A stretch of 64,000 nucleotides of DNA from Eledone cirrhosa (lineage: Eukaryota), in the NCBI GenBank assembly GCA_964016885.1, contig OZ024741.1, positions 124,992,001-125,056,000 on the forward strand. Reading direction: 5' to 3'. The stretch's first letter is position 1. Every line of letters starts with the position of its first letter. The translations under genes were made by a program, and so were the position numbers. This document shows positions 10,780-52,590 of the stretch, in pieces. Below the pieces are notes generated by a model. The model did no database searches. It was not told the origin of the DNA and was given only the letters and a program-made list of their open reading frames with translations.

Positions 10780-10823
<44 letters not shown>

Positions 10824-11038
10824 GAATGCCATGGTTGACGGAGGCTCGGCTCTGTAAGGTATAGTAATTTTTAACCGTTAAAACAATTGTAAATTGTTTA
10901 AAACTTGAACCAAATTGTTGATAAAGACACCCTCCTCCTCGTGAGAGGGGTCTTTCTGTCCGTTATTTGGCCCTTCGGGGTTAAATAACCAGTTATTGGG
11001 GTTTTGTACCCAATATTCATTTTAAACAAAAAAACAAC

Positions 11039-13132
11039 ATGGCTACGAAAAAGAAATTTCATACGTCACTCCCACTCATTCCGTCTTCTTCTTCCTCAAT
11101 CATCACTACAGCAGAGAGAAGATTGTCTCTCTCCCTCCCTTCTTTAAATGTGTCTCTCTCCCTCCCTTCTCTTTCGCAAGTGACGAAAGAAAAGAAAAGT
11201 CTCGTGCAAAGCGTGCAAGGTTTCTCCACGACGACGACGACAGCGACGAAACAGGTGTGCGGGAAATACGAAAACCCAGTTCATTCGTCTGACGTCAGGA
11301 ATAATAGCAGTAGCAGCCGTAATAACAACAGCAACAGTGACAATGAAAACAACAGTAGCAGCCGCAACAGCATCACCAGCAGCATAAACAACAACAGCAT
11401 TAGCAGCAGCAACACCAACAACAACCACAGCAACAGCGACGGAGGCAGTAGTCGTAGTACCTGCAGCAACAAAAGTACCAGCAGCTCTGACGACAACAAC
11501 AACAGCAGAGAAAAACCAATCTCATTTGCAGGTATTGCGAAAAACTTGGAAACAATCCTCATAACAAATGAGGAATTAGAGGAAGCGAAGAAGATGGTGA
11601 CAAAGAACGGACACCGAGCAATCTGCAAGGCAGCGAAAAATTTTTTCGAAACCCAAGAGCACTGTACGGTCACGTACCGTACAGTAAGTACAAAATCCCG
11701 TAGGGTGGAAAGAGCCACAGAGGCCCAAATACAAAAAGCCTTAGGGTCTGTGTGGCAGCGGAAAACGCACATCACCCGAGGCAAAAAATATGCCACCGTA
11801 GACGTACTTTTTGCCACACCCCAGGAGGCAAAGGCCCAATCAGTAGTGACCCTAAGGAGCGAGGAAATGGTGTTGGTGCCCTCCTACTGTGGGCAAAAAA
11901 TTGTGAGGGTCAAACTGACCCACGTCCCCCCCGGAATGACCCCTTCTTGGCTGGCCGCGTCTGTCCTCGTCGGAATCGAGGACAAAACAACTGTACTGCA
12001 AGTACAGAAAAAAGTAAGAGAAGATTGGGTCGGCTCCTCCATTGAGATGCTAATCCAAACCAACCAGGAGTGCATCGAAGCTATCCCGGATGTGATAGAC
12101 TTCGATAACGGCACTCAACTGCCCATAAGTGTTGAGGGCAAACGCCCGAAATGCTTTCGCTGTGGATCGAAGACTCACCTCAGGGCCTTCTGCAACGAGA
12201 AAACCCTGAGAAAGGAGAAAACCCCCCTCCTTCCGAATCCGGCTCCACGGCTACCAGCAACAGGACAAGGGGCAACCAGGAACGATAGGCCCGTGGCACC
12301 CATACCCACTCCACGGAAATCAAAAACAGCAGCAGCAGTGGAAATACTAACAACAACAACAGCAATACCAAATGCAGCTGCAACAGAGACTCCAGTGCAA
12401 ACATCACCAACAACAACAAGTGAAAGAGTGGGGTTGGTACCCCTCCCCGACCTCACAGAATCAGACATGGAGTGTGAGGTGGGAGAGAGATGGCAAAAGG
12501 TCGTAAGAAGGCACAAACGCAGAAGCAGCGCATCGTCGCCTTTGAAAAGGGAGGAAAGAAATGAGAAAAGGGTAAAGTCTACTGCAAAGAGACCCACAGC
12601 AGCAACAACACCAACACCATCACCACCCACACTAGCGCCACCATCACCACCGGCGACAACCCCACCGCCAACAACACCTTCAACACCACCACCACAAGCA
12701 CCAACATCGCAAACACAACAACAAAACACACACACCCAGCAACAACGACAAGAAAATAGCAGAACCACACCCCACCCCCAGAAAAACAAATGCACGGCAA
12801 TAAACACACACAACAAGAAACTAATGACTTACATAATTGAACACACAGACATTTCACAACAGGACTACATAATACCAGCACCAATCAAAACGCCAACTAA
12901 CATAAGACTGCTAAAAATAGCACAGAAACAATACACAAACATTAAAACGAAATTCCCCAACGCAGTTGGTGATTTCAGGGACCTAGGAGGAACCATTAAT
13001 CGAAGAGTATATTCAGACATTCTCTTAGAAGAGCCGACGACCAGCCGAAGGGACGATTCAACGGTCCCTTCACCAGACGATCAAGTGAAAAGGGATGTAA
13101 AAACCATCCCTCCTCTACCAAAAGTACGGTAA
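11039..13132 (+). CDS. ORF1 (gag-like nucleic-acid-binding protein)
   Basis: 697 aa. N/S-rich N-terminus, RRM-like core, CCHC knuckle CFRCGSKTHLRAFC, WQKV-basic motif and P/T-rich tail. Confidence 0.9.
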   Translation: MATKKKFHTSLPLIPSSSSSIITTAERRLSLSLPSLNVSLSLPSLSQVTKEKKSLVQSVQGFSTTTTTATKQVCGKYENPVHSSDVRNNSSSSRNNNSNSDNENNSSSRNSITSSINNNSISSSNTNNNHSNSDGGSSRSTCSNKSTSSSDDNNNSREKPISFAGIAKNLETILITNEELEEAKKMVTKNGHRAICKAAKNFFETQEHCTVTYRTVSTKSRRVERATEAQIQKALGSVWQRKTHITRGKKYATVDVLFATPQEAKAQSVVTLRSEEMVLVPSYCGQKIVRVKLTHVPPGMTPSWLAASVLVGIEDKTTVLQVQKKVREDWVGSSIEMLIQTNQECIEAIPDVIDFDNGTQLPISVEGKRPKCFRCGSKTHLRAFCNEKTLRKEKTPLLPNPAPRLPATGQGATRNDRPVAPIPTPRKSKTAAAVEILTTTTAIPNAAATETPVQTSPTTTSERVGLVPLPDLTESDMECEVGERWQKVVRRHKRRSSASSPLKREERNEKRVKSTAKRPTAATTPTPSPPTLAPPSPPATTPPPTTPSTPPPQAPTSQTQQQNTHTQQQRQENSRTTPHPQKNKCTAINTHNKKLMTYIIEHTDISQQDYIIPAPIKTPTNIRLLKIAQKQYTNIKTKFPNAVGDFRDLGGTINRRVYSDILLEEPTTSRRDDSTVPSPDDQVKRDVKTIPPLPKVR

Positions 13133-13167
13133 GTGGTCTTTCCCATCTTTTCCACTCTATTTTAAAC

Positions 13168-16100
13168 ATGACCTCACTCAGAATAGGCAGCATAAATGCG
13201 CGTGGCTTGGGGTCGTCATGGAAGCAGGGTCACCTGCTCAACGACCTCAGGTCACTAAACATAGATGTAGTGGCCATCAGCGAGACCAGAATCTCCGAAG
13301 CACGGGCCTTCGCACCGATCTTCGGCGGCTACGATGTGTACGCATCTCCCAGCCGTCCTGGATCGGGTGGAGGAGTTGCTGTGCTTTTTCGGAGAGGTTT
13401 GGATCTCGCCATACGGGCCATCTTCCTGGACCCAGAGGGTAAGCTGGTGGTGCTGGACGTGACCAGCGGAGACGGGCAAGCTTTCAGGCTAGTGGCCGTC
13501 TATGCCCCGACAGGAGCAGGGCGGCCTGATTTCTTCCGGCGTCTGGAGACCTTTCTTGGAACGTCCCGCTCTTTAGTGTTAGTGGGCGACTGGAACGGGA
13601 TCTTAGATGCACGCTGGGACTGTGTGGGATTAGCGGATAGGGGTGGAGGGTGCAAGAGCCTCACCAACCTGCTCAGGCGTTTTGAACTGTCTGACAGGTA
13701 CCGATTGTATTTCCCGAATGTGCCAATGTGGACTTGGACAAACCGCATAGGGTCATCCAGATCATATCTAGATAGAGTATTTTGTAGGGAAATAGATAGG
13801 TCTAGCATAGGCTGTCCACAATTCAAGATAGTCAGCTACACGGACCACAAATTCGTGATCTGTGTGCTTGACTTAGATAGGCTTCATAGACGAGGACCCG
13901 GCTACTGGAAGCTAAACGCGTCCTTACCAGCGCGCAAGGCCTACAGAGACCGGATTAGCGAACTAGTTAAGCGGGCGTTGACGGGGGCCATCGTCAACAA
14001 CAAGTGGTGGTTTGCTCTGAAAAGAGCGATTAGAATAGAATCGATTAGGTTTAGTAAGGCTTTAGCAATAGAGAAAAATAGAGCAGAGGGAGAACTAGTT
14101 AGAAAATTAGACGAGGCGCTTAGCAAAGGCATTGCGACCGACGTGCTTGCGGCGAAATTGGCCCTTGACCAATTCTTCAATGCAAAGCACGAAGGCTGCG
14201 TTGTCAGAGCTAGGGTGCGTGCTCTCAGTCACGAGGGGACGAAAGCCGTTCAATGGGCCCGAGTGGCGGAGGCGCGTCGTGGCAACAAAGCCACGATCCG
14301 GTCTTTGGTGGACCACGACGGGCGCATGCTACTCGATCCCGGGCAAATGTGTGAAGCTTTTCAGCGACACTTCGCTCAGCTGTTCGGGGGCAGCGGTGGG
14401 CCGGGTAGAGGGATGGACTTTAGTGTCTACCTCGACGGACTGCCGCGGCTCTCGGCCACTGAGGCGAAGTGTTGCGAAAAGCCGATAACAGCCGCTGAAG
14501 TAAGGGAGGCAATGACTGGCTGCACAAGGGGTAAATCGCCTGGTTTGGATGGTCTGCCCTATGAACTTTACTTACAGATGCCAGACTTGTTCGGAGGCCT
14601 CTTGGCGGACGTCTACTGCAACTGGCAACAGAACGGGAGAATTCCCAGTTCTGTGAGCCGAGGAGCGGTGGCACTGCTGAGAAAGGATCCGAACAAGGGG
14701 GATAACATAGACAATTTCCGGCCCATAACTCTGCTAAACACAGAGTTTAAGATTTTGGCCAAGGTGCTAGCAAAGAGGTTGGCGCTTGTCGTTGGTGGTC
14801 TGGTGGGAGAGGCGCAGACATGCGCCATTCCCGACAGATCCATCCACGACAACCTCCACCTCATGCGATACATCGTAGAGAGGGTAGCTAGGGAACCTGG
14901 CACGGGTGGGTCCTTGATCAATTTAGATCAGTCGAAAGCTTTCGATAGGGTCGACCATCGTTACCTAGCGGCAGTCCTGAGGGCGGCTGGCTTTGGGCCC
15001 GTCTTCAGAGGCTGGATCGCTGCCATGCACAGCGACATCTGCTCTGTGGTGAGAGTGAACGGTCACCTGTCGGAACCGTTCAACATCATGCGCTCGGTCC
15101 GCCAAGGATGTCCCCTCTCGTCCCTCTTGTACGTATTGACTCTCGAGCCATTACTGCACAAACTGGAGACGTTGAGGGGAGTCCCGCGCGAACTAGGATG
15201 CGGAAGATCCGTGTCAGCATATGCGGACGATGTCACCGCAGTGGTGTCGAACGCCAAACACATCGAGGCGATCGGCACTACACTAAGAGAATACGAAGCG
15301 GTGACAGGAGCAATGATCAACCAGGAAAAGTCAGTGGGCCTGCAGCTCGGCACCTGGAGAGGCAGGTCCATGCCGTCCAACAGCGTCGTCGGGCGCTGGA
15401 CGGACGGACCGGTTAAATTGCTAGGGGTCTGGTTCGGTCCGGACCTCCAGACGGACAAAAACTGGGACGAGGTGACGAGCAGGGTGGCTTCTCTCACCCA
15501 GAAATGGGCGGAGAGGAAGCTATCCCTGAAAGGTCGAGCGGAGGTGGCTAACGCGTACATCGCGTCTGTCATCTGCTACCGCCTAACCGTCGTACCTTGT
15601 CCTAAGCCTCGCCTGACTGCGCTGGAGCGTTTGCTCTTTCGCTTTTTGTGGAAGGGACGTGCTCCGATGGTCAGGCGGTCCATCTGTTGTCAACACCCGC
15701 TACGTGGAGGGCTGGGCATGCCGTGGCTGATGATGCGCAGGCACGCGCTCAGGCTACGACATCTCCACCTCTTCCTCGACGGTGATCAGGTGTGGTCGCC
15801 GTTTGCTAGACGCGTTTTTCCCCAGCTCGTTTCCTTGACGGAGCTGCAGTCCTGGGTCAAGCGAAGACCGAGAGGGAGCGCCTGGAGACTGGAATGTCTT
15901 CAGGCGCTCACAGCCCTCGACCAATCGGGCAATGTGATCGGTGGAAACTCCACCTCGGCGTTCTATAGAGGATTAGTGGAGGGGAAGAGCGACGACGTAC
16001 TTGGGGAAACTCTAGGCGTCGACGAAAATCAACTAGCCAATCTCTTCGGAAGAACTTTCGGGCCAGGGCCTATGGACAACTTCCAGAAATCTCTGGCCTG

Positions 16101-16587
16101 GCAGTGCTACCGAGGAGCCTTGCCAGTTCGGGATAAACTCTACAGGCATGGAGGTGCCGTCAGCCGGGCATGTCCGAGATGCGCGCAGGGCGACGAAACC
16201 GTCCTGCACGCACTCGTCCAGTGTCCGAAAATTGCTGACTTGTGGGTTTATGTCGAACACCTGCTGTCGCGTTTAGGACGGATCCGGCTATCATCTGAGT
16301 CCATCGTGAGGATTGCCCCGCCCTCCTCCTTTAGCCGGGAAGGGCAGGCAGTTTTTATCTGCCTGGTGGCCATGGCGAAAGAGATAGTATGGTGGACACG
16401 TTTGAAAGGGCTGAAGACGAGCACTTACCTCTTCGGTGATGCTCTGATTGACTTTTTCAAATTTCATTTGAAAAGGAAAATCAGAGTAGAGAGGGAAGTG
16501 CTCTCTTCCCAGCATTTTGTTGAAAGATGGGTGAGAGAAGCAAGAATGGCCCGAGTGAATGGGCCGACTCTGAGCATATATCTGTAA
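13168..16587 (+). CDS. ORF2: APE endonuclease + reverse transcriptase + C-terminal zinc finger
   Basis: 1139 aa. SINARGL, ISET, VYAP, GDWN, SYLDR, TDH, GYWKLN; KSPGLDG, FRPITLLN, LDQSKAFDRV, VRQGCPLS, YADD; CPRC..ETVLHALVQC. Confidence 0.97.
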   Translation: MTSLRIGSINARGLGSSWKQGHLLNDLRSLNIDVVAISETRISEARAFAPIFGGYDVYASPSRPGSGGGVAVLFRRGLDLAIRAIFLDPEGKLVVLDVTSGDGQAFRLVAVYAPTGAGRPDFFRRLETFLGTSRSLVLVGDWNGILDARWDCVGLADRGGGCKSLTNLLRRFELSDRYRLYFPNVPMWTWTNRIGSSRSYLDRVFCREIDRSSIGCPQFKIVSYTDHKFVICVLDLDRLHRRGPGYWKLNASLPARKAYRDRISELVKRALTGAIVNNKWWFALKRAIRIESIRFSKALAIEKNRAEGELVRKLDEALSKGIATDVLAAKLALDQFFNAKHEGCVVRARVRALSHEGTKAVQWARVAEARRGNKATIRSLVDHDGRMLLDPGQMCEAFQRHFAQLFGGSGGPGRGMDFSVYLDGLPRLSATEAKCCEKPITAAEVREAMTGCTRGKSPGLDGLPYELYLQMPDLFGGLLADVYCNWQQNGRIPSSVSRGAVALLRKDPNKGDNIDNFRPITLLNTEFKILAKVLAKRLALVVGGLVGEAQTCAIPDRSIHDNLHLMRYIVERVAREPGTGGSLINLDQSKAFDRVDHRYLAAVLRAAGFGPVFRGWIAAMHSDICSVVRVNGHLSEPFNIMRSVRQGCPLSSLLYVLTLEPLLHKLETLRGVPRELGCGRSVSAYADDVTAVVSNAKHIEAIGTTLREYEAVTGAMINQEKSVGLQLGTWRGRSMPSNSVVGRWTDGPVKLLGVWFGPDLQTDKNWDEVTSRVASLTQKWAERKLSLKGRAEVANAYIASVICYRLTVVPCPKPRLTALERLLFRFLWKGRAPMVRRSICCQHPLRGGLGMPWLMMRRHALRLRHLHLFLDGDQVWSPFARRVFPQLVSLTELQSWVKRRPRGSAWRLECLQALTALDQSGNVIGGNSTSAFYRGLVEGKSDDVLGETLGVDENQLANLFGRTFGPGPMDNFQKSLAWQCYRGALPVRDKLYRHGGAVSRACPRCAQGDETVLHALVQCPKIADLWVYVEHLLSRLGRIRLSSESIVRIAPPSSFSREGQAVFICLVAMAKEIVWWTRLKGLKTSTYLFGDALIDFFKFHLKRKIRVEREVLSSQHFVERWVREARMARVNGPTLSIYL

Positions 16588-16848
16588 ATTAAAGGTGGAA
16601 AACTGGGAGAGGGCACTTGCCTTGGTGGTCAGGGTCATTGTGGCTTTTTACTGGGCTTTCTCCACAAATGTCCCTCCGAAGTCTCCCCCCTATTGGGGAA
16701 TTTTTCATTGTTATTTTCATTGTTATTTTTGTTACATCCTCTGTTTTTGTTTTTTTTACACGCAGAAATGCCCATTTGTACCGTCCTGCATTGTCCTGCA
16801 CTGTCCTTAATGTCTACTTTATGTAAACCCTTGTGGTTAATAAAGAAA

Positions 16849-16918
<70 letters not shown>

Positions 16919-17214: not shown

Positions 17215-20200
17215 CAGCACAATGATTATAATTAAAAAAAGAAAAAAACAGTATACATATATACACATGTGCATATGCATATGTAAATACAAGGAGGGAT
17301 ATCAATCTTACAGAGATAGTGCTCTTCTCAATACGTGTGCAGTACCAGTCAAAATAATTTTTTGCACCTCGGGCAGAGAGGATAAACCAGGAATCATTCG
17401 CAAATATTGTCCTGTTCCTTTCGTGATCATTCCCAGTCCTCCCACAATCACTGGGATTGTAACGGCCTTGAGGTGCCACATTTTCTCAATTTCAATAAGC
17501 AAATCTTTATATTTTCGTAGCTTGTCAAATTCTTTTGCCGCGATATTGTGATCACATGGGATGCTCATATCTATCAACAAACAGACCTTGTTATGTTGAT
17601 CTTTTATAATGATGTCAGGTCTATTTGTTTTTATGGTCCTGTAATGTATGTACAGGAAAGTCCCAGAGAATTGTTACATTTTCTCCTTCAGTTACAGCCT
17701 CAGGGTGATGATTGTACCACTTGTCTTCAGCTTTGATTTTGTAATGCCGACATATTACCCAGTGTAGATATTGGCCAACTCTGTCATGTCTATATTTGTA
17801 TTCTACTGGTGCTAAAACTTTACATCCAGAGACTAAGTGATCCACTGTTTCAACCTCAGCATTGCAGAATCGGCACTTTGGCTTTATTCCGTTTCTCATC
17901 ACATTGGCCTGGTAATTACGAGTCAATAAGCTTTGATATTGGGCAGTTAAGATGAAGCCTTCACTCTCCGCCTTTGGCCCTGAATTACGTAGCCACTGAT
18001 GTGTGTGCTTTTGGTCAACATCAGCTTGTTTGCTACGGGCCACATATTTGCCATGCAGATGTTTCTGCTCGTTATTTGATGCTAATTGTCCTTGCCCTTT
18101 GCTTTTGCCAGTTATTTTATGTGCCTAGCAGCATCAGTTGCAACAGTTTTCTTTTGTCTGTCCAGCCTGGGTATCAAGCATGAGATCAGTAGCATATTGT
18201 TTGCTCTCCCTCAAGATAGAATGAAGCTGCTTACTTCTCTGATGCATTTCAACAAGTTTCAGCATACAGTCGTTAGTTCTTTCAAGGTATTTGGCCAGTG
18301 CAATGATGGTGGTCTTGTAAGTAAGTTCAAATTGGATCAGGCCACGGCCTCATTGAGTTCTAGGAAGGTAAAGACGATCCACATCTGCTTTTGGGTGGTG
18401 CATCCTATTACAGGTCAGTAGCTTACGGACTTTGGTGTCGATTCTTTTGATTTCACTCATATTCCAGTTCAACACACCGAAGCTATAAGTAACAACTGGG
18501 ACTGCCAAGGAATTTATGGCTAACATCTTTTTATGAGCGTTTAGTTCTGATCTCAGAACAGCATGTACTCTCCTGTAACATTCTTTCCTTATCCCCTCTT
18601 TCATACTTGCATGCTGTATGCCAGAGCCCTCTTTAATCCCTAAGTATTTATAGGTTTTTCCTGCTCAAGTTTCTTTATGAGTGTTTCAGCATGCAATTCA
18701 ACTGAGTGTGAGTTGACAAGCTTCCCCTTATTGAAAGTGGCTTTTGCACACTTGTCAAGTGCAAACTCCATCCTGATGTCATCGCTAAACGTTTTTACTC
18801 TCGGCAAAAGGCCTTCCAGTTCGTCATTATCTTTGCAATATAGCTTCTTGTCAATTCTATAACCGTACCCTGTCCTATTAAGTTCGGATGTTAGACGTAT
18901 TAAAGCTATGCAGAAAAGCAAGGGTGAAATTGAGTCACCCTGGAATATACCACAGTTGATGTTTATATTCCTAGAGCACAGTACCCCAGTGGAATTAGAC
19001 AATTGGAGATTTGTGTTCCATAATGACATATTGTGTTTCAGGAAGTTTGAGATCACATGTGAGATTTTGAAGATGTTCAGTGATTTCAGAATCCATGAGT
19101 GTGGTCTGCTGTCAAAGGCTTTTTTATAATCGATCCATGCAGAACTGAGATTTCTGTGTTTATTATGACAGTTCTCAATGATCATACGATTAATCAAAAG
19201 TTGATCTTTGCAACCATATGAACCTCGTCGGCACCCTTTTTGTTCAATCGGGAAAAGATTGTTCTCCTCCCAAAAACACGTATGCTTTTTCCATGAGAAT
19301 AGAAGTTAATAGTTTATAAGTGGTGGACAAGCAGGTTATGGGTCAATAGTTTTTTTTTATCTTTGGTTTCGTTGCTCTTTGGTAGAAGGTAGGTAATGCC
19401 ACTTGCTATCCAATCAGGTGTATTTTTTTGATCTTTCATAATTCCATTAAACAGCTTGACCAATATATGTGCACGGGAGTGAAGAAAGCCAGAAATTTGG
19501 CACCAGGAGATTTCAATTTATGAGATTTATTGAGTGCTGTCCTTAAGTCCGCTATAGAGATGTGTTCCCACGCCTGTTCTACTGAATTTGTGTAGGATTT
19601 GTCTAATCTAATCTACATTAGCATTATATGTCTTCTCATCATTCCAAATCTTACTCCAGAAGTTTTCAACTTTTTCTATAAACGGGGGTCTTCAATAATT
19701 CTTTTTTTCTTCACTACTTCTCTATAAAATGACTTGGCATTCGATGAGAACAACTTATTTTGCCTGTAGAAGTTGTTTCGCTTCTCGAATCTACGAATTC
19801 GTTGGGCTTTTACTTGGACTTTTTGTTTCAGAGATTCTTTTGTTGAAACTATTGCTTCTCTAGAAGACAGTCCATATTTTCTCTTTAGCTTTCTTACCTT
19901 CTTGGATCTTATATCATTTCCAGCGGTTAACTCACCCAATAAAGATATTTCTCATCTCATTACGCCAATCTCCTTTTCGATTCTACTTCTCCAAATTGGT
20001 TTACCTCGAAGGTTCGACCTTTTTTGTTTATTTGGTGGTAAACAACTTGTTTCAATTACTCTAGCAGATGCATAAATGATTTCATTTAACTCAGTAATAT
20101 CAGGTTCTAGTTTTTCTATGATTTCTTTTGTCACAGAATTAGCAATCATTATTTGTTTTCTATTTTGGATTGTGTTTGGGAGTTTTTGAAGTGGTTCTCC

Positions 20201-22133: not shown

Positions 22134-25100
22134 ACAGTTGCATTTATCTTGCTTTATGTCCATACGTGTTATCACCAAGTCACAACCAGTGACCTCAAGA
22201 GACAACAAGGTCCGCCATGTTCAAGAAAGAACATACATACTCACACATGCATCTTTAGTGTTTAGACTTGTGATGTACTTATATTGACAGAATCTTCCTT
22301 AGTATATGGGCAGTTCCCATTAGTACTATCTTTTGTATTTCTCCTATACGCGGGTTTCCTGGGATCTGCGATAAGTAATCATTAGACCCCTTAGGTATCA
22401 TTCCCAGAGCGCCTACAACCACTGGTATTGTTTTAGTTCTCAATTTCCACATTTTTCCAATTTCTATCTCCAGGTCCTTATACTTGCTCAATTTTTCAAA
22501 TGTTTTTATAGATACATTCTTGTCTATTGGAACAGACATATCAATTAGCAGGCATACCCTCTTTTTAAAGTCCTTCAATATTATATCAGGTCTATTTGCA
22601 TCTATTTTTCGGTCTGTTTGGATGCTAAAGTTCCACAAGATTGAGATGTGATCTTTTTCAAGTATGGGAGGTGGGTGATGCTCCCACCAATTCTTTTGAT
22701 GGGGCAGGTCAAAATGCTTACACATTATCCAATGTATGTATTGTGCAGCTCTGTCATGCCTGTTTAGGTATTCGGTTGGAGCTATAGGACTGCACATTGA
22801 AATTATATGGTCAATAGTCTCTGGTTGTTTTTTGCATACTCGGCATAATGGGCTGCACCCATTTTTTATTATGTTGGGTTGGTAATTTTTTGTTGGCAGA
22901 CACTGATCTTGTGCCGATATAATCAGTCCTTCAGTCTCCGATTTCAGTCCAGAGGATGCCAACCACTGATGGGTTAAAGTTTTGTCAACATCGGGATTGT
23001 TAGCTCGCTCTGGGTATTTTCCATACAGAGGCTTTTCTTGCCATTTCTTAGCCAGTTTCTGTAGCAGTTCTTTCTTTGCAGTTACTTTTACCTGCTTTGC
23101 TTTTTCTGCGTTTTCCATTTCAGCAGTAAATGGGACTTCTGAAATTTGTAGTCCATTACTGTATCTTTGTGCATCTTTTGTAATGGAATATGATCTTTTG
23201 ATGCTTTCGTGTTTCAAAACGAGTTTGATCATCCAATCATGTGATTCCCTTAGATATGTAGATAATCCAATTGTTGCAGTTTTCAACGCAATGTCTAACT
23301 GGATTAACCCACGTCCTCCTTCTTTCCTAGGGAGATATATTCTATCTATATCTGCCTTAGGGTGATGCATTCTGTGCATAGTTAAGAATTTTCGAATTTT
23401 TGTATCGAGCCTACGGATCTCTGTGCTTGACCAGTTGATGACATTGTAACTGTAGGTTACTACTGGTATGACAAGCGTGTTTATGGCATCGATCCTATTC
23501 CTTGCATTCAATTCCGTTCTTAAGATTGCTCTTACTCTGCGGTAACATTCCTTCCTTATCCTTTCCCTCATTGTCGAGTGCTTGATTCCGTCTCCTTCAC
23601 AAACACCTAGATATTTGTAAGTTTTTTCTTGATCAAGTTCTCTTATCACGTTCCCCGATCAAGATTAATGTCTGAACTCTTCAGCAGCTTTCCTCTGGTG
23701 AACGTTGCCTTGGTGCATTTATCTAGTCCAAACTCCATTTTAATGTCATCACTGAACTGCTCCACAGTGGATAATAGCCCTTGCAATTGTTCATCATTTT
23801 TTGCAAATAGTTTCAGGTCATCCATGTAGAACAGGTGAATAATGGTTTTGTCATAGACTTTATATCCATGTTTTGTTTCATTGAGCATTTTACTTAATGG
23901 TATAAGTGCGATGCAGAATAAAAGCGGTGATAAAGAGTCACCCTGAAAAATTCCACAATTAATATTAACTTCTCCAGCTTCCAGTGATTTTGTTTCACTA
24001 TTCAAAAGGAGTGTCGTTTTCCATGTCTTCATACTGAATGACAAAAACCTCCTGACAACGGGGGATATTTTGAAAATCTCTAAACATTTTTCAATCCAAC
24101 TGTGTGGCAAACTATCGAATGCTTTTTTATAATCTATCCAAGCAATCGATAGATTTTTGTGTCTATTATGACAATCTTCCAGTATCATTTTGTTAACCAG
24201 AAGCTGATCCTTACAGCCATATGAGCCTCGTTTACACCCTTTCTGCTCAATGGGAAATAGGTCATTTGTTATCAGGTGGTCATATGTGTTAGGACTGATG
24301 TTAAAATTTTATACATTGTGGTCAAGCAAGTTATCGGTCTGTAATTTTTGGGATTGTTTGTCTCATCATTCTTCGGAAGCAGGAATGTAATGCCGTTAAC
24401 TAGCCATGATGGTATCTTTTCTGGCTCCTTAATTATTTCATTGTAAAGTTGGGCTAACAGCTCATGAGACTCTGTGAAAGCATTTATCCAAAAGTTTTGT
24501 ATTTTGTCTTTTCCTGGGGATTTCCATTTGCTGGTTTTTCTTGGAGCCAAGCGCAACTGTTCAACTGTTATATTTTCCCATATTTGTTCCTCAAGGTGAG
24601 CTGTATCTTTCATTTGTCTGTCTATCCATGGGGCATGTATGTTATGAACTTTTTCTTCAGCCCAGATCTTTTCCCAGAATTCTTGCACTTCCTCCTTGGG
24701 TGGTATTGATTTAGCAGTTATTGTTGACTTACCAATTTTTCTGTAGAAGTTTCTCTGGTTGTTTTTGAACATATTATTGTCCTTATAGAATCTAGATCGT
24801 TTTTCAAAGCGCCTTATACGAGCAGCTTTGGCCGACACTTTTTGCTTGATTATTTCTATCAGCATGTCTATGTCACATGTTGATTTTATACTGTACTTTT
24901 TTTTCAATTTTCTAAGTTTAGTTTGTTTAACATGTTCACCTACTTTATAGTTTGTTAAAATTTCTATGTCAGATCGGAGAAGGTTTATTTGGCGATTGAT
25001 GTTCTCTTGCCAAGTAGATTTCTTATGGGAATTCCTTTGTTTTTTCATCTTCACTCCACATAAGTGAGTGGTGACTTTAGCCGATGCATAATAGAGATGA

Positions 25101-26100
25101 TTTAAATCAGTAATGTTTAGTTTGTTTGTGATGATAATGTTTTTGAGAATTATGTTAGTCTTGTGTATTATCTTTTGGTTCTGTTTGGAGTTCTGGATCT
25201 TAGGAAGGGTGTCTCGTTGCCCCATGTCAGATTCTTTCATTTTCATCCATTCGATCATAATTTCATCCTTCAAGTTGGCAAGTTCATTCTCATTCATTTC
25301 TTTATCATTTACGATCTCATTATTTTCATTTGGAGTTTCATCCTGAGCATGCACTCCCTCCACTTTTTCGATCCTTTCTTTAATTTGTTCTGTTTCCAGT
25401 GATTCCGCCCCAACACTGGGGTTCGAATGTTACAGTTTACCTCGTTTTCACTGACACATGTTTCATTTTCCCTTCGCTGACTTTGTGCTAATAGCTTGAT
25501 CTGATCAATTTCTATATCAGTTAGTAACATTTTTCTTACAATATTTCTTCGTATATTGGCTAGTTTGTTACTGTCAATATAGCCTCTGTTTTCGGGATGT
25601 TTCTTTTTCCAGTTGATATATGTCTGTTCTGTATTCGATGTATTTGATGGGTAGTACATGGCAGTGTAGAAAGCCTCAAGGACTTCTTTATTATCTTCCC
25701 TTGACCACTTTTCTCTCTTTTTCTTTGGATTTCTTGGTGGTGAGCATGGAGGGCCAACAGTAGGAGTATTCCGGTTATGGGAGGTCTCCATCTCCGAAGT
25801 GATGGGAAGGTTTGAACCATTAGCTGATTTTTCGACCCCAGTCTGGTTCCTCTCTGAGGGACGCGGCCCTTTTTTACCCGGGTGACAGCCGATCCGGTAT
25901 GAGATTTTATCATTAGACATTTACTTTATTTTGTCGCGTTTTATCCTTATCCGCCAAGGGGTAATCATTTCGTGTTACCACTTCTAGAACGAGTGTCAAC
26001 CAAGACTAGAGGGGTCGTTCTCCCCTAGAGACACGGCTATTCCCCGCCGGCCGCCATCCCGGTATTTCTTGGTCACGGGGTTTTCTTTTTGTTGTTTTTT
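22134..26100 (-). mobile_element. Near-full-length R4/Dong-like retrotransposon, copy 2 (few frameshifts)
   Basis: The single ORF is split into 25309-25920, 24272-25363, 23646-24188 and 22279-23649. Motifs: WKSPGKD, NYRPITCL, HLFYMDD, YKYLG, CRVC..ETIDHIISMC, NRPD, KLSKYKDL. The 3' end abuts (ATT)n. Confidence 0.93.
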
Positions 26101-27073: not shown

Positions 27074-30000
27074 GGCGACCTACGTAGTAAATCGTATCAT
27101 CGTGAGCTCCGCAAAGGTTTGTTATTTCCGTTTGTTAAAAATTGCCATTTATGGAAAATTTTTATTGTTAACTATATATAAGCGCACATACATTGTTTTC
27201 CGAAAAGGACACCCAAAAAGATTGGGGCCTTGTGCCCAAAATTTAAACTTTTATGATTATCAAAAAAATTTCTTTGAAAAAAAATGGCTAATTCACCACT
27301 GCACCAAGCAGCTGAAAGCCTTTCTCACAAATTAACGCCTCACACCGACAGGCAGACATTCATTTCCCGCCATTACCAATGACTGCAGGTGTTAAAGCCG
27401 CCACCACCACCACCGCGACAACAGAAACAAAAGGAAAAAATAAATCAACTCGTAATGTCGAAATATTTTCAACCAAAATGGACTCTCCCAGACCGACTTT
27501 CAATGACGTCACCACCACCACAACTGAAACTAAAATTAATAATAACAAAAATAACGATTGCAACAACAACAACAATGACATTAAAAAAAACACCCTGAGT
27601 TTTGCCAGAGTAGCAAAACAGTTCGAAGCATTTACGGTAACTCAGGAGGATTTAGAAAATGCCAAACAAATGGTAAAGAAAGATGGGTACAGGGTCAGCC
27701 TCCCCCCCCCCCCCACCTAATAAAATGGAGCATCGGCGCCTATGCACCGTGTCGTATCGAACAATAAATGTAAAATCGCGCCGAGTGGAACGGGCATCCG
27801 AGTCCCAAATCCAAAAAGCTTTGGGACATGTGTGGGCAAGAAAAACCCACATCAGACGTGGGCAGAAGTATGGAACCGTGGACGTGTTCTTTGAAACACC
27901 AGAGGAGGCTAGAGAACACTCCATGGCCCCATTAAGAAGTGACGACTTCACACTCGTCCCAAGCTATTGTGGCCAGAGACTCGTAAAGATCAGGGTGACC
28001 CACGTTCCACCGGCCATCGAAATTCCCTGGCTAATAGCGGCCGTCCTCGCCGGCATCGAAGCCAACACAAAGATAATAGCAATAGCAAAAGAAAAGCAGG
28101 AGAACTGGTCCGGATCTGGGATGGAGCTCCTGATCCAAGCGGACCAAAAAAGCATTGAGGAGATCCCAGAGGTAATAGACCTCACTGACGGCAGCCACCT
28201 AACCCTAATTGTCGAGGGCAGAAGGCCTAGGTGTGTCGTTTGTGGTGAAGGAACCCACCTAAGGGCTTTCTGCCCTCAGGTTAAAAGGTTGAGGCCACCT
28301 CTCCTACCCACCCCAGTGACACAACCATCAACACCACCAGTAGCAGAGATGGCAGCAACAACTGTAGCAGCAACAACAGAAGCAACTATAACAGCAACAA
28401 CCCCAGCAACAGTAGCAAAAGTAACACCACCACCACCAGCAAAACCAGCACAACCACCACCCAACGCTTCAGAACTAGCACCAGCGCCTCCACCATCCAC
28501 CACGCCACAGCCAAAACTAACGCCTGTGGAGGATTTTCCACTCCCCTGCCTATCACAACTGGAGTCAGATTGTGACGACGAGGAGTGGGAAACGGTATCA
28601 GGAAAAAAAAAAGAAACCAAAAAAGAAAAAATTCTCTTCCTTCCCCCTCCAAAAACAAAATACAGAGGGAAACAAATAAATTAACAAACAAAAAAGTTAG
28701 GACAGATATGCCACCATCCACACCATCATCACCAACCCCATCAACCCAAACACCAACACCATCACCATCATTAACCCCAACACCACCATCACCTACACCA
28801 CAAAAGTCACCAAAATGCGAAACAGAAACAAACCTACAACAAACGCAAACATAACAAAACAACCAAAACGATACACACTACACAGCATTAAATTTGAACA
28901 ACAAGCAATTATTACACTACATCCAACACAACACCAGCATCACAGAAAAAGACTACACAACAACCCAAAAGTTCACACCACCTCCACACATACAAATCAC
29001 TCGCATCACACAGATAACGTACACGACACTAAAACAAAAATTCCCCAAAGACATCGGAGACTTCCGACAAACACTCTCCAGGAGGATTTATAAGGTCATC
29101 CTTCCGGAGGAGGCCACAAGCAGTGAAAAGGATGGACAAACCATCCTTCCTCTACGAGAAGTAAGGTAAGTGGTCTTTCCCATCTTTTGCACTCCATTTC
29201 AATATGACCTCACTCAGAATAGGCAGCATAAATGCGCGTGGCTTGGGGTCGTCATGGAAGCAGGGCCACCTGCTCAACGACCTCAGGTCACTAAACATAG
29301 ATGTAGTCGCGATCAGCGAGACCAGAATCTCCGAAGCACGGGCCTTCGCACCAATCTCCGGCGGCTACGATGTGTACGCACTCCCAGCCGTCCTGGATCG
29401 GGGGGAGGAGTTGCTGTGCTTTTTCGGAGAGGTTTGGATCTCGCCATACGGGCCATCTTCCTGGACCCAGAAGGTAAGTCGGTGGTGCTGGACGTGACCA
29501 GCGGAGACGGGCAAGCTTTCAGGTTAGTGGCCGTCTATGCCCCGACAGGAGCAGGGCGGCCTGATTTCTTCCGGCGTTTGGAGACCTTTCTAGTGTTAGT
29601 GGGCGACTGGAACGGGATCTTAGATGCACGCTGGGACTGTGTGGAATTAGCGGATAGGGGAGAAGGGTGCAAGAGCCTCACCAACCTGCTCAGGCGTTTT
29701 GAACTGTCTGACAGGTACCGATTGTATTTCCCGAATGTGCCAATGTGGACTTGGACAAATCGCATAGGGTCATCCAGATCATATCTAGATAGAGTATTTT
29801 GTAGAGAAATAGACAGGTCTAGCATAGGCTGTCCACAATTCAAGATAGTCAGCTACACGGACCACAAATTCGTGATCTGTGTGCATGACTTAGATAGGCT
29901 TCATAGACGAGGACGCGGCTACTGGAAGCTAAACACGTCCTTACCAGCGCGCAAGGCCTACAGAGACCGGATTAGCGAACTAGTTAAGCGGGCGTTGACG

Positions 30001-33000
30001 GTACCATCGTCAACAACAAGTGGTGGTTTGCTCTGAAAAGAGCAATTAGAATAGAGTCCATTAGGTTTAGTAAGGCTTTAGCAATAGAGAAAAATAGAGC
30101 AGAGGGAGAACTAGTTAGAAAATTAGACGAGGCGCTTAGCAAAGGCATCGCGACCGACGTACTTGCGGCGAAATTGGCTCTTGACCAATTCTTGACCAAT
30201 TCTTCAATGCAAAGCACGAAGGCTGCGTTGTCAGAGCTAGGGTGCGTGCTCTCAGACACGAGGGGACAAAAGCCGTTCAATGGGCCCGAGTGGCGGAGGC
30301 GCATCACTGTAATAAAGCCACGATCCGGTCTTTGGTGGACCACGACGGGCGCATGCTACTCGATCCCGGGCAAATGTGTGAAGCTTTTCAGCGACACTTC
30401 GCTCAACTGTTCGGGGGCAGTGGCGGGCCGGATCGAGGGATGGACTTTAGTGTCTACCTCGACGGACTGCCGCGGCTTTCGGCCACTGAGGCGGAGTGTT
30501 GCGAAAATCCGATAACAACCGCTGAAGTACGGGAGGCAATGACTGGCTGCACAAGGGGTAAATCGCCTGGTTTAGATGGTCTGCCCTATGAACTTTACGT
30601 ACAAATGCCAGACTTGTTCGGAGGCCTCTTGGCGGACGTCTACTGCAACTGGCAACAGAACGGTAAAATTCCCAGCTCTGTGAGCCGAGGAGCGGTGGCG
30701 CTGCTGAGAAAGGATCCGAACAAGGGGGATAACATAGATAATTTTAGGCCCATAACTCTGCTAAACACAGAGTTCAAGATTTTGGCCAAGGTGCTAGCAA
30801 AGAGGTTGGCGCTTGTCGTTGGTGGTCTGGTGGGAGAGGCACAGACATGCGCCATTCCCGACAGATCCATCCACGACAACCTCCACCTCATGCGATACAT
30901 CGTAGAGAGGGTAGCTAGGGAACCTGGCACGGGTGGGTCTTTGATCAATTTAGATCAGTCGAAAGCCTTCGATAGGGTCGACCATCGTTACCTAGCGGCA
31001 GTCCTGAGGGCGGCTGGCTTTGGGCCCGTCTTCAGAGGTTGGATCGCTGCCATGCACAGCGACATCTGCTCTGTAGTGAGAGTGAACGGTCCCCTTTCGG
31101 AACCGTTCAACATCATGCGCTCAGTCCGCCAAGGATGTCCCCTCTCGTCCCTATTGTACGTATTGACTCTCGAGCCATTACTGCACAAACTGCCAGACTT
31201 GTTCGGAGGCCTCTTGGCGGACGTCTACTGCAACTGGCAACAGAACGGGAGAATTCCCAGCTCTGTGAGCCGAGGAGCGGTGGCGCTGCTGAGAAAGGAT
31301 CCGAACAAGGGGGATAACATAGATAATTTTAGGCCCATAACTCTGCTAAACACAGAGTTTAAGATTTTGGCCAAGGTGCTAGCAAAGAGGTTGGCGCTTG
31401 TCGTTGGTGGTCTGGTGGGAGAGGCACAGACATGCGGAAGATCCGTGTCAGCATATGCGGACGATGTCACCGTAGTGGTGTCGAACGCCAAACGCATCGA
31501 GGCGATCGGCACTACACTAAGAGAATACGAAGCGGTGTCAGGAGCAATGATCAACCAGGAAAAGTCAGTGGGCCTGCAGCTCGGCACCTGGAGAGGCAGG
31601 TCCATGCCGTCCAACAGCGTCGTCGGGCGCTGGACGGACGGACCGGTTAAATTGCTAGGGGTCTAGTTCGGTCCAGACCTCCAGACGGACAAAAACTGGG
31701 ACGAGGTGACGAGCAGGGTGGCTTCTCTCACCCAGAAATGGGCCGAGAGGAAGCTATCCCTGAAAGGTCGAGCGGAGGTGGCTAACGCGTACATCGCGTC
31801 CGTCATCTACTACCGCCTGACCGTCGTACCTTGTCCTAAGCCCCGCCTGACGGCGCTGGAGCGTTTGCTCTTTCGCTTCTTGTGGAGGGGACGCGCTCCG
31901 ATGGTCAGGCGGTCCATCTGCTGTCAACACCCGCTACGTGGAGAGCTGGGCATGCCGTGGCTGATGATGCGCAGGCACGCGCTCAGGCTACGACATCTCC
32001 ACCTCTTCCTCGACGGTGATCAGGTGTGGTCGCCGTTTGCTAGACACGTTTTTCCCCAGCTCGTCTCCTTGACGGAGCTGCAGTCCTGGGTCAAGCGAAG
32101 ACTGAGAGGGAGCGCTTGGAGACTGGAATGTCTTCAGGCGCTCACAGCCCTCGACCAATCGGGCAATCTGATCGGTGGAAACTCCACCTCGGCGTTCTAT
32201 AGAGAATTAGTGGAGGGTAAGAGCGACGACGTACTTGGAGAAACTCTAGACGTCGACGAAAATCAACTAGCCAATCTTTTCGGAAGGACTTTCGGGCCGG
32301 GGCCTATGGACAATTTCCAGATATCCCTGGCCTGGCAGTGCTAGCGGGGTGCTTTGCCAGTTCGGGATAAACTCTACAGGCATGGAGGTGCCGTCAGCCG
32401 GGCATGTCCGAGATGCGCACAGGGCGACGAAACCGTCCTGCACGCACTCGTCCAGTGTCCGAGCATTGCTGACTTGTGGGTTTATGTCCAACACCTGCTG
32501 TCACGTGTAGGACGGATCCAGCTATCAGCTGAGTCCATCGTGAGGATTGCCCCGCCCTCTTCCTTTAGCCGGGAAGGGCAGGCAGTTTTTATCTGTCTGG
32601 TGGCCATGGCGAAAGAGATAGTATGGTGGACACGTTTGAAAGGGCTGAAGACGAGCACTTACCTCTTCGGTGATGCCCTGATTAACTTTTTCAAATTTCA
32701 TCTGAAAAGGAAAATCAGGGTAGAGAGGGAAGTGCTCTCTTCCCAGCATTTTGTTGAAAGATGGGTGAGAGAAGGAAGTATGGCCCGAATGAATGGGCCT
32801 TCTCTGAGTGTGTGTCTGTAAATTAAAGGTGGAAAACTGGGAGAGGGCACTTGCCCTGGTGGTCAGGGCCACTGTGGTCTTTTAATGGGCTTTCTCTACA
32901 AATATCCCTCGGAAGTCTCCCCCCTATTGGGGAATTTTTCTTTGTTATTTTATTTCATCCTCTGTTTTTTTACACGCAGAAATGCCCATTTGTACCGTCC

Positions 33001-33110: not shown

Positions 33111-36100
33111 TTTGAGTCTCAGTCATTGATGTTAGTTAATTGTAAAGTTTGTTGAAATGAATATCAAGCCACTACCTGCAGCCTCAGATATTCAGGACGT
33201 ATCGGAGGTTTCTTGCTGTTCCCAGCAAGCATGCCTTTTGAAGCGTTCCAAAAAGCGTGAAGGGGCCAATTTTCTTTAACCATCCTTGGAAACTTTTTGA
33301 GATAGTCCCTAGTGCGCCTATGACAATCGGGATTACTTTGACTTCATGACAGTTCCAAATCCTTTTTACCTCCCACTTTAAGTCCTGGTATCGGTTAATT
33401 TTCTCCCTCTCCTTCTCTTGCAATCTCGTGTCGAATGGGCACCCACATCCACAATCAGGCACGATCTTTTTTCTTTGTCCACAACCACCAGGTTAGGTCT
33501 ATTGTGTTCCAGTTTCTTGTCCGTCTGTATCCTAAAATCCCACAGCACCTTCACCTGATCGTTTTCTATCACCGAGTCTGGCTTATGCTCATACCATTTC
33601 TCCGAATGTGGTAAATTGTTTACTTTGCATAGGTGCCAGTGGATCACCCTGCCCATCACATCATGTCTCCAGCCCTTATAGTGAGTCTGGGCTAGGTGTT
33701 TAGACTCGGATACAATGTGAGCCACAGTCCCCTCTCTCTCTCCACAGATCCTGCACAGTGGGCTAGCCTCCTCCTTGTAAATATGGTGTTTCAACCACTT
33801 CGTTTTGAGGGCCTGCTCCTGCGCAGCCATTAACATCCTTCTGTAGCCTTTTTAAGGTCTCCTCTTTTCAACCAGTTCCATGTCTGTGGATATCTAAATT
33901 CAGTTTTCTCAAAGAAGGTACTATGAAGGGATTGTTCCTGAAGGCTGCTCTTTCTCCTTGATGTTATTTCCTCCTTGGACATCCCCTGGCCTATTGTCCC
34001 CTCCTTCAGTACAGTTCTGAGCATTGGCTCCTTACTATCAGTGACGTATTTGTGTAGGTCGTTTTTCTCCATCTCAACACAATCCTCTATGCTGATAAGA
34101 CCTCTTCCACCCTCAGATCTCCTTAGGTAGAGTCTATCGACATCACTCCTCTTGTGGAACATGTTGTAGATAGTCAATAGCTTCCTAGTCTTACTATCCA
34201 TTTCTTTTTGTTCAGCAACATTCCATCTCAGAATTCCCGCACTGTACCTAATAATAGACACAACTCGGGAATTTACTGCGCTTATGTCATTTCTGCTGTT
34301 CAGATGTGACTTCAATACGCTCCTTACTCTCCGAATGTATTCAGTTCTTAACAATTCCTTCATTTTTTTGTTCTTTATGCCATCAGCCTCCAGAATGCCC
34401 AAATACTTGTATCCTTCCTCAGAGTCAATTTCCTTTATCATCTCACCTGTTGGTATCTGGATTCCGTTACTTCTGCTCAACCTACCCCTCCTCATCACAA
34501 TGACTCCACACTTACTAATACCAAACTGCATACATATATCACTGCTGAAAATACGGACAGTGTCAACAAGCACATCCAACTCCTTCTCACTCTTCCCGAA
34601 GAGCTTAAGATCGTCCATGAAGAGGAGGTGATTGATGGTAAGCCCTCCCTTTCCCAACCCGTATCCTGCTCTCACTTTTCGCAGTACACTGGTCAGGGGC
34701 ATCAGGGCAAGGACAAACAACAGAGGGGACAGGCTATCTCCCTGGAAGATACCTCTCTTGATCTTCACGCTTCCCAAGGATTCTCCAGTTGATGTCAACT
34801 CTGTTTCCCAGGACCTCATACTCTTGCCCAACAACTGTCTGATGTTATCTGCCACCTTGAAGATCTCCAGGCTTTTGGTGATCCAAGAATGAGGCACCAT
34901 GTCAAATGCCTTTCTGTAGTCTATCTATCCCATGGCAAGATCAGTGTGTCTCCTCCTGCAATTCCCCATTACCATCTTATCAATAAGTAACTGGTCCTTT
35001 GTACCACGTGACTTCTTTCGGCATCCTTTCTGTTCGTCCGGTAACAAGTTGTTTGTGTGGAGGTGATGGTAGATTTCCTCAGACATAATGCTCGTCAACA
35101 GTTTCCACATTACGGACAGACATGTGATAGGTCTATAGTTGGTAACATCATTACCTTTGATTCGGTCTTTCATTATCAGAACTGTGGTACCTTTTGTCAA
35201 CCACTCTGGTACCTCACCTGACATCAAGCAGTCATTGAACATAGTTGTCAGTTTCGGGTGGAGGGATGTTATATTTTTAATACAATACCCCTGCACACCA
35301 TCTGGGCCTGGTGATTTCCAGTTGGTTAGTTTTTTGGCCTGCCCCTTAAGAGTTTCAACTGTGATACTCAAATCAGTTTTCTGGTGTGCCTGCTCACCGA
35401 TCTCCCTCTGTACTGTCTCAATCCACCCTGCCTGGTCATTATGTCTAACATCCTGCTCCCATATTCTTCTCCAGAATGTTTTAGTTTGTTCCGCCTCAGG
35501 GATCAAGTCGTTGCCTCTTTCTTTCCGCTCAAGCTGTCCGAACAGCATCTTCTGGTTGTTGTCGAACATGCGGTTCTGTTTATACTGACTGACTCTGTTC
35601 TCGTATCGCCTGATTTTTGCACTCTTTGCTACAATGCGTTGCTTCAGTTCCTCTATGATAATATTTAGCTTTTTCCTCCTAGTTTTGTACTTTATTTCCA
35701 GTCTATTTTTAGTGCCTATGTTTTTTAGTGTCCCATTCAGTAGTGACTCAAGCTTTCCAATGTCATTTCTCATTTCCCTGATCTGACCACTCAGTCGTTT
35801 CTTCCACCAAGGCTCTGCTCTTTCTTGTCTGTTGTTTCCTCTCGCTTTTATACCAAGTAGTTTCCTCACCGTATTTGCTGTTGCTTTGAGGATATTGTTG
35901 CACTGGTGAAGGCTCCTCGCCTCAAGGTATGGGATGACTTTGTTTACCTTAGCTGTTGTTTCTTTTAACTTTTTCCTGTCTACAAATCTTAGGTTCATAG
36001 GTCTCCCACTATCATTGTTCAATTCATCTACCACTAAATTTAGGATGTCAACCGAATCTTGTCCTAGCCCGTCAGCATTTATCTCCTCAGTGGCCGTATC

Positions 36101-36770
36101 CCTGTTCCAGGTATTATTTATCTCAGTATTCAGATCATTGTCTGCTTCGGGTGGTTCCTCCGTTCTCTCGACCTCTTCACCTTCATTTCCCACTGGCTCG
36201 TTTGCCTGGCATACTCCACCCTCCATCTCCAAGCTAATCTCTCTGCTCAGTTCCTTCAGTTCCAGCTCGCTTATCCACCCATTAGTTCTTATTACCCGAG
36301 CCTGCCCGGCCAATGTTTGTTCATCTAATTTAAATAGACCAATCTCGTTCCAGATGTTATGCATCCGTCTCCTATAGCCCCTCTCCTTGGGGTTACTTTT
36401 CAGGTAACATTGCATAACAGTTCTATTCAATTCTTTCGTCCAGTTGGTTCTGGTCCCTTTCCTTCTTCCTCCGACACCAGCAGTATTTGGTTGACAGCCA
36501 GGTCCCTGCTGCTGAGCCAGGGAGCACCTGTTGGGTGAGAGTCTGTCACATGATTTTCTAGTCTCCATTTCACCGTTATTCGAACTGTTTAATTTCGACA
36601 TTTAAACACTCTTATCGAGGATTGGCGAATGTATGGTTACATAACCATCTGTGGATTCACCGTCTCCGGTGGTTGCCTCCCTCCACTTGGCTCTTGTGTG
36701 GCATTATCACCACGCTGTAGACGAACACAAATAAACAAACAAACAAACAGGCAGAAACCCCCCCCAAAAT
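33110..36770 (-). mobile_element. Near-full-length R4/Dong-like retrotransposon, copy 3
   Basis: ORF fragments 34925-36601, 33830-34900, 33378-33836 and 33184-33462. Motifs: [54 protein letters not shown]. Tail-to-tail with Tx1 copy 2 across (ATT)n. Confidence 0.93.
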
Positions 36771-51961: not shown

Positions 51962-51964
<3 letters not shown>

Positions 51965-52590
51965 AATGCCAATCCCAGTCGAATTGGATGTGTAGGTTGC
52001 ATTTGGCTTTTAGCAATATCAAAAGCGCGTCTTTGTATGCACATTGTGAGTGCCCTATAACACTTTTCCTGTCTTCACCTTGGGAAACCTCTGCAAGATA
52101 CCCGTAATAATCGCCTTTCATTTTCAAATAAAATACTTTGCTCTCTGTAGTAGATGCTTTTGATATCAAATAGTTCTCAAGAAGATCCAATACTTCTGTA
52201 CAAATTGCTTTAAGTTCTAGTTCAACCTTTTCACGGTAATGTTTAGCCATTGCAAGCTTCCTCTCATAGTTTTCTGCTTTCGATTCAATGCTGGAGATGA
52301 CTCTCCACGATGACTGGCGTGCACTGACGACATTTTTATACGCGACCGATAGCAAATTCTTTTCCTCGTTGTTCAATTCTACTCCATTCTCTGTCACTTT
52401 TTTCATAGTTACGGCCATATCATCGTAGCATTCAGCCTGTTCGGCTAATTTTGCTTTCGCTACTAAATCCTCCTTTGAGTTACCGCTCTGTTCTGTCATT
52501 TTCCTAAGAAATGTAAGAGCAAATGGAAATTCAAAGTTATAACAAAAGAATTTCAAGGTTAAACTTCCACCTTTTACAAAGATGGCGGAT
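51962..52590 (-). pseudogene. 14-3-3zeta: Processed, 3'-truncated 14-3-3 (zeta-like) pseudogene
   Basis: ATG at 52499: [62 protein letters not shown]. Intronless, with a frameshift near 52045 before [22 protein letters not shown]. Stops at a (CT)n tract. Confidence 0.92.

Follow-up and report, generated by a model that had tools for sequence, protein, structure and literature searches.

Conservation of a 5' splice-site motif between ORF1 and ORF2 in Tx1-like LINEs of Eledone cirrhosa

The junction in the window

The window, by which we mean the whole analysed stretch of 64,000 nucleotides of Eledone cirrhosa DNA (assembly GCA_964016885.1, contig OZ024741.1, positions 124,992,001 to 125,056,000 of the forward strand), contains a full-length long interspersed nuclear element (LINE) with two open reading frames (ORFs), here called element 1, together with a second copy of the same family (copy 2) and a copy of another family (copy B). 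At the junction between ORF1 and ORF2 of element 1 a 5' splice-site motif, or donor, lies across the ORF1 stop codon, and the same motif is conserved in related families of this genome. The features are as follows, with a slash marking the exon boundary:

10824-16850, plus strand: young LINE of L1/Tx1 type, full-length (subfamily A1 of family A; 5' end approximate), inside an (ATT)n microsatellite
10782-10823 and 16851-16918: ATT arrays flanking element 1
11039-13132, plus: ORF1, 697 amino acids, stop codon TAA at 13130-13132
13126-13134, plus: 5' splice-site motif ACG/GTAAGT, conserved across families
13137-13163, plus: pyrimidine tract immediately 3' of the donor
13168-16587, plus: ORF2, 1139 amino acids, with APE endonuclease, reverse transcriptase (RT) and C-terminal zinc-binding domain
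13179-13181, plus: CAG put forward as acceptor, its AG within the Arg5 codon AGA
16742-16765, plus: strong acceptor-like site (U-rich tract, then CAG) in the 3' untranslated region (UTR), family A only
16839-16844, plus: AATAAA poly(A) signal upstream of the (ATT)n tail
29163-29217, plus: junction of copy 2 (subfamily A2), whose ORF1 differs upstream of about 29122
60342-60399, minus: junction of copy B (family B), GAG/GTGAGT

The architecture of element 1 is that of the L1/Tx1 clade: two ORFs with a short spacer, an ORF2 with N-terminal APE, RT and C-terminal zinc-binding domain (Pfam PF03372, PF00078 and PF13966), a poly(A) signal and a simple-repeat tail. The best PDB match of ORF2 is human L1 ORF2p (E 3e-52), with R2 at only 6e-21, and one short protein match to Octopus sinensis was obtained (64% identity over 5% of the query). 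A CX2CX4HX4C knuckle can be read from the ORF1 sequence, and a Pfam search with ORF1 returned no family match. ATT on both flanks of element 1, and ATT or TCTA tails in the fetched copies, agree with a Tx1-like preference for microsatellite targets. The Tx1 label, taken over from the original prediction, is provisional and fits the elements on these features.

It had been proposed that a mini-intron at this junction, 13129-13181, fuses the two ORFs in frame. The geometry of element 1 is indeed as described: ORF1 ends CG/GTAAGT, the only AGs in the interval are that of the donor itself and the CAG at 13179-13181, and deletion of the 53 nucleotides yields an Arg codon and continues in the ORF2 frame, so that the GT...AG ends of a putative U2-type intron are present. 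GGTRAGT at 13126-13134 is the sole sense-strand occurrence in the 5.8 kb of element 1 that were scanned. The junction of copy 2 (29166-29217, 52 nucleotides) likewise agrees with its description. For copy B (60396-60342, minus strand, 55 nucleotides) the geometry holds, but the absence of any earlier AG is not a property of its family: 26 of 29 other family-B loci carry TTTTCAG 7 nucleotides upstream of the ORF2 ATG, and the copy in the window is thus a variant. Both copy 2 and copy B have broken reading frames, and the placement of the copy-B stop codon on the donor therefore rests on C-terminal homology (ETKR-stop).

The motif and its first AG across families

Junctions were gathered from seven families, A to G, within this genome, which differ considerably (ORF2 DNA identity among A-F 68-83%; identity at four-fold sites 49-77% between families). 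In all seven, G/GTRAGT stands 28-46 nucleotides upstream of ORF2, together with a pyrimidine tract, which is kept by composition and not by sequence, and with a start context like CAAC. With one representative per family, donor positions -1, +1, +2, +4, +5 and +6 are invariant, as against 0 of 22 upstream positions (-24 to -3), 0 of 18 downstream positions and 60 of 225 four-fold sites in ORF2. GGTRAGT was counted on the sense strand of 16 elements: 15 have it once or twice, one occurrence being at the junction, and the sixteenth is a point mutant. The junction carries this conserved 5' splice-site motif regardless of whether the ORF1 stop codon overlaps it: in family C1, ORF1 ends GK-stop in 24 of 30 loci and the donor is retained though the stop has moved off it, B2 ends GE-stop with the donor retained, and in family G the frame reads through a retained motif.

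Two other readings of this conservation have to be weighed. The motif could be an ancestral Arg-stop context inherited by descent and devoid of function; the stop codon indeed fixes TRA in most families, and the ORF2 stop context is likewise conserved in most of them. Yet both flanks have diverged fully, the motif survives changes of frame, and four unconstrained positions at 0.27 each would all be invariant with a probability of about 0.005, which makes simple descent improbable. Alternatively, the motif could serve reinitiation or promoter activity in connection with the start of ORF2 and merely look like a donor, with splicing as a rare by-product. Its spacing from ORF2 varies little and does not depend on where ORF1 stops, which would suit such an element, and in human L1 a 5' UTR donor is retained within a RUNX3 site, according to PMC5860796. 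Against it, the invariant letters of the junction coincide with the U1-pairing ones, and the alternation of A and G at +3 agrees with this too. It is a general rule of donors that their letters pair with U1 and that either A or G is allowed at +3. A mere look-alike is accordingly a rather unlikely explanation.

The donor motif exceeds chance expectation, whereas an in-frame acceptor does not. Depending on the subfamily, the donor may be in any of the phases 2, 1 and 0, and the position of the first AG relative to the ORF2 start is -9, -7, +4, +8, +14 or +16. Of the 11 junction types, 5 place this AG in frame, namely A (52-53 nucleotides), D1 (53), E (51, one copy), F (42) and B1/B4 (34-39), and out of frame in the other six (B2, B3 with one copy, C1, C3, D2 and G), so that the relatives display a variable phase of the first AG, one of the signs that the original prediction had named as speaking against it. 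Family D2, out of frame, is young, its copies being 99% identical. In degenerate copies the phase was set by the conserved C-terminal peptide, and single copies with private frameshifts disagree with it. For the interval 13129-13181, neither position nor frame of the acceptor is conserved.

The junction of the young family G fits a coupling of stop and start and not an in-frame splice, because its ORF2 is open from an ATA that overlaps the TAG of ORF1. The 603-residue ORF1 runs through the donor to this TAG, and ORF2 (1146 codons, ATA start, no AUG, in 3 of 3 copies) has its first Met at codon 35, past the first endonuclease motif (loci L240-L242, L249 and L258). The reading frames suggest that ORF2 of family G is made by non-AUG reinitiation or by a -1 frameshift; a reinitiation model for ORF2 translation is cited in PMC5381506. 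An eighth type, family H, is represented by locus L235, with an A-like ORF2 (91% amino acid identity over 130 residues), a different ORF1 end and a stop codon just before the ATG. Viral contigs searched for relatives with DNA context yielded none, five metagenome loci with 21-30% identity lie outside the lineage by their junctions, 54 protein relatives lack DNA context, and a distant-protein query matched this lineage only.

An RNA that is spliced and still encodes RT should at least sometimes be copied, and the original prediction had proposed a search for precisely intron-less copies. Human L1 offers a yardstick: 131 of its 6,609 full-length copies, about 2%, have been spliced (PMC5860796). 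Family A is young and abundant in the 3.0-Gb genome, with 4,658 exact matches to the 24-mer behind the proposed acceptor and 4,452 to the ORF1-end anchor; none of these 4,452 copies lacks the mini-intron, and no genomic family-A copy is joined at the CAG at 13179-13181. A second pattern, which excluded the last letters of the intron, gave ten matches and again no intron-less copy (seven small variants, two copies with 11 nucleotides deleted behind the ATG and one with a foreign 5' flank). Searches for ORF1 ends followed by anything but the donor returned 6, 8 and 5 matches, which are small changes apart from one microhomology deletion. In B1/D (1,106 anchors), F (855) and B2, no loss of a short intron was seen for the acceptors covered by the patterns, which omit some exon starts, such as those behind the acceptors at -9 in C1 and at +14 in B. 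Loci L262, L263 and L265, at one point candidates for micro-intron loss, turned out to be hybrids and were dropped. In contigs assembled from the runs X1, X2, X3 and X6, which are not recorded as RNA and so do not bear on expression or splicing, no joint starts at 13128 among the joints listed (15 of 30 in a set from all four runs, all 11 in a set from X1, X3 and X6), and contigs of X1 and X6 span the entire unspliced junction.

The fusion intron is thus unsupported, since the acceptor phase varies among relatives and intron-less copies are absent, and as a family-wide need the fusion is already refuted by this non-conservation. It can be said in its favour that several families have the AG in frame, that the donor is likely functional, and that splicing which is rare or confined to the soma would leave no trace among genomic copies. 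Nevertheless, the in-frame AG of element 1 belongs to an Arg codon in the N-terminal part of the endonuclease, and 16 nucleotides separate it from the end of the pyrimidine tract, so that we regard removal of a 52-55-nucleotide intron with an in-frame ORF1-ORF2 product as highly improbable. Of the proposal of regulated splicing or U1 binding at the junction, the conserved U1-complementary donor stands, and the hybrids described below indicate that it can be spliced; the short intron and the Gag-Pol-like fusion do not.

Hybrid elements joined at the donor

Family B1/D was searched for foreign sequence behind the donor boundary, which gave 15 and 17 matches. Seventeen hybrids (16 of the 17 matches and L262) share one joint, at which a B-type ORF1 stops exactly at the donor boundary and is followed by the last 23 nucleotides of a family-F ORF1, the F spacer and the F ORF2. 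Their 5' parts are 88-96% identical to B and 74-80% to F (14 copies with long 5' parts), and their 3' parts are 95-97.5% identical to F and 79-83% to B. The joint point is preceded by CAG in 29 of 30 F parents, with CTAAT or CTCAT, which we take to be branch-like by motif consensus, 13 nucleotides upstream of it. Four copies (L262, L263/281, L265/283 and L290) have a second joint, at which the ORF1 of another B subfamily, again ending at the donor boundary, is attached to a point that follows a CAG in the single-joint hybrids. Both joints have the form known from SpIREs, lying at the donor exon end and right after an AG of the parent. In the hybrids ORF1 acquires a short frameshifted tail. They occupy separate loci with 93-98% identity, and thus were amplified after they had formed.

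In element coordinates both joints lead backwards, and AG is all that they share, which is what splicing from element to element in a head-to-tail array would give. Mixed neighbours on the same strand exist: D then F, 5.5 kb apart, near 76.26 Mb of contig C1, and F then B, 6.0 kb apart, near 42.27 Mb of the same contig. Control joints, taken over the 12 positions upstream of the donor, comprise small indels in 9 of 11 cases and single-copy forward microhomology deletions in the remaining two. Judged from these joints, the hybrids probably arose by splicing, either within read-through transcripts of head-to-tail arrays or in trans. Template switching on the two-nucleotide AG homology could also have produced them and stays in the field as the less probable route.

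Head-to-tail runs are a common arrangement of family-A copies, with a spacing of about 6.05 kb (for example contig C1, 55.427-55.453 Mb), and B, D and F copies form mixed runs, consistent with insertion of the elements into each other's microsatellite tails.

Within the window, A1 (13045-13128) and A2 (29124-29165) share only the last 42 or so nucleotides of ORF1, a stretch that begins right after an AG in both. The extra 41-nucleotide unit of A1 (13045-13085) weakly resembles the terminal unit of ORF1 (shuffle p 0.003-0.014, yet at least 10 of 1,965 ORF1 windows score equally) and is possibly an older joint at the donor boundary.

Proposed function of the donor and relation to known systems

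No acceptor common to all families was found when the 3' UTR, the ORF2 end and internal AGs were compared. The excellent acceptor-like site in the 3' UTR was dropped as a general partner because it is confined to family A, and conserved acceptors within ORF2 (for example +415) were dropped because they do not exceed controls, conserved AGs with a pyrimidine tract numbering 5 on the sense and 15 on the antisense strand, and 0-7 for other dinucleotides (6 of 8 dinucleotides). Regular use of the donor with a distant acceptor, in the manner of plant copia elements for GAG, would remove ORF2 and give an ORF1-only mRNA, not copied in cis, and an excess of ORF1p. Such an mRNA would explain why the donor keeps its position at the ORF1 end while its phase varies, an outcome to be anticipated where ORF1 can bear short tails of any kind. 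The donor can probably function as such, the family-A 3' UTR offers a very strong site, and in B, C, D, E and G ORF2 ends with TAG followed by G behind a pyrimidine-rich stretch. The lack of a shared acceptor and the sense/antisense counts speak against it, as does the absence of ORF1-plus-3'UTR copies among 4,452 A or 1,106 B1/D anchors, although cis preference would hide them. Of what is expected by analogy with copia shGAG, the U1-type donor conserved at the end of the structural ORF is present and the conserved acceptor for a structural-only RNA is absent. We consider an ORF1-only mRNA unlikely.

Since there is no shared acceptor and internal AGs do not exceed controls, we prefer binding of U1 without splicing. 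The donor is conserved, likely functional and unspliced in the RNA that is copied, and in this it resembles the donor of the copia element EVD. By this analogy, the donor and the pyrimidine tract would bind the U1 small nuclear ribonucleoprotein (snRNP), usually without splicing; the bound U1 snRNP would protect the 6-kb bicistronic RNA against premature 3'-end formation, ORF2 would be translated by reinitiation on the unspliced RNA, and the donor would occasionally splice across head-to-tail arrays and so exchange ORF1 between families. We give the first three of these steps, docking of U1 snRNP with protection of the RNA and reinitiation at ORF2, a probability of about 0.45. A wider proposal, which we hold to be possible but doubtful, is that a working donor makes ORF1 an exon, that array splicing grafts it onto the ORF2 of other families so that new, active hybrid families arise and spliceosomal exon shuffling drives ORF1 replacement in an autonomous LINE lineage, and that U1-coupled control of ORF1-only versus full-length RNA is the selected function.

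It should be noted that several observations count against this U1-based explanation. The invariance figure is partly circular, the donor columns having been anchored on the motif itself, and the seven families are related by ancestry; L235, one copy of the eighth type, has the weak donor CAG/GTTATT. The hybrid joints represent two events only, both found by searching at the donor, so that the 3' CAG is their only unascertained feature, and three boundary joints are not clean splices (L185 with microhomology, L264 displaced by one base and L346 by three). A(A/T)TAAA occurs only 0-2 times per element in ORF2 and 2-6 times in ORF1, roughly the expectation from A-richness, and both U1 binding and premature termination are presumed from the copia analogy.

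Some further features of the elements and the window were noted. Tails and targets are (ATT)n in families A and C and (TCTA)n in B, D, E, F and G, and the 3' UTRs across families share a short inverted repeat of C-run, TATT and G-run (16686-16701 in the window), a possible RT recognition hairpin. ORF2 of copy 2 contains an internal 250-nucleotide duplication (30601-30851 and 31185-31436, 98% identical). On the minus strand, an intronless 14-3-3 reading frame of 178 residues at 51963-52499 (Pfam E 3.8e-54), which adjoins a microsatellite, is likely a processed retrocopy. Broken copies of other non-LTR (long terminal repeat) elements with RT lie at 18640-19185, 22279-25920 and 33378-36601, all on the minus strand; we take their C-terminal region to be restriction-like-endonuclease-like, the Pfam matches being weak.

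LINE RNA is regarded as intronless, and splicing as a dead end for it. If the donor is truly selected in seven families, a LINE would be employing U1 snRNP in the manner of copia elements, and the hybrids would offer a concrete, testable path for the exchange of ORF1 among LINE families; the young, intact, high-copy families are suited to reporter tests. An ORF1-ORF2 fusion protein would have been the larger surprise, and is unlikely.

In the full-text literature, as far as excerpts go and with Repbase, subscription journals and supplements aside, no description was found of a donor at the ORF1/ORF2 junction of a LINE or of ORF1 swaps made by splicing. The string "splic" is absent from the accessible text of PMC5381506, and a repeat annotation of Octopus describes active L1-Tx1 families with splicing unmentioned in the part available (PMC13282606). 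Related ideas exist already in SpIREs, the LAVA trans-splicing model and copia shGAG. With the Tx1 elements Kibi and Koshi (PMC4494074) the present families share insertion of an APE-type LINE into short microsatellites, whereas the targets here are (ATT)n and (TCTA)n, the comparison being one of target and not of phylogeny. As in human L1 SpIREs (PMC5860796), spliced LINE RNA was probably fixed by retrotransposition, and a conserved donor is maybe kept for other reasons. The SpIRE donor, however, lies in the 5' UTR and gives intra-element dead ends in about 2% of full-length copies, whereas here the donor stands at the ORF1 end, no intra-element products were found, and inter-family hybrids were amplified to 17 copies. 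The gibbon LAVA model (PMC5174737) also derives a new retrotransposon subfamily from a splice between two RNAs, in that case of a non-autonomous element with a cryptic, one-off donor, in contrast to the autonomous LINEs and conserved donor described here. A parallel in function would be the Arabidopsis Ty1/copia element EVD, in which U1 bound at the donor makes a GAG-only RNA possible and shields the full-length transcript from premature termination (PMC5580714). Both systems conserve a U1-type donor towards the end of the region for the structural protein; EVD is an LTR element that has one Gag-Pol frame and whose intron is conserved, whereas the LINEs of Eledone are bicistronic non-LTR elements with no conserved acceptor, known from DNA alone.

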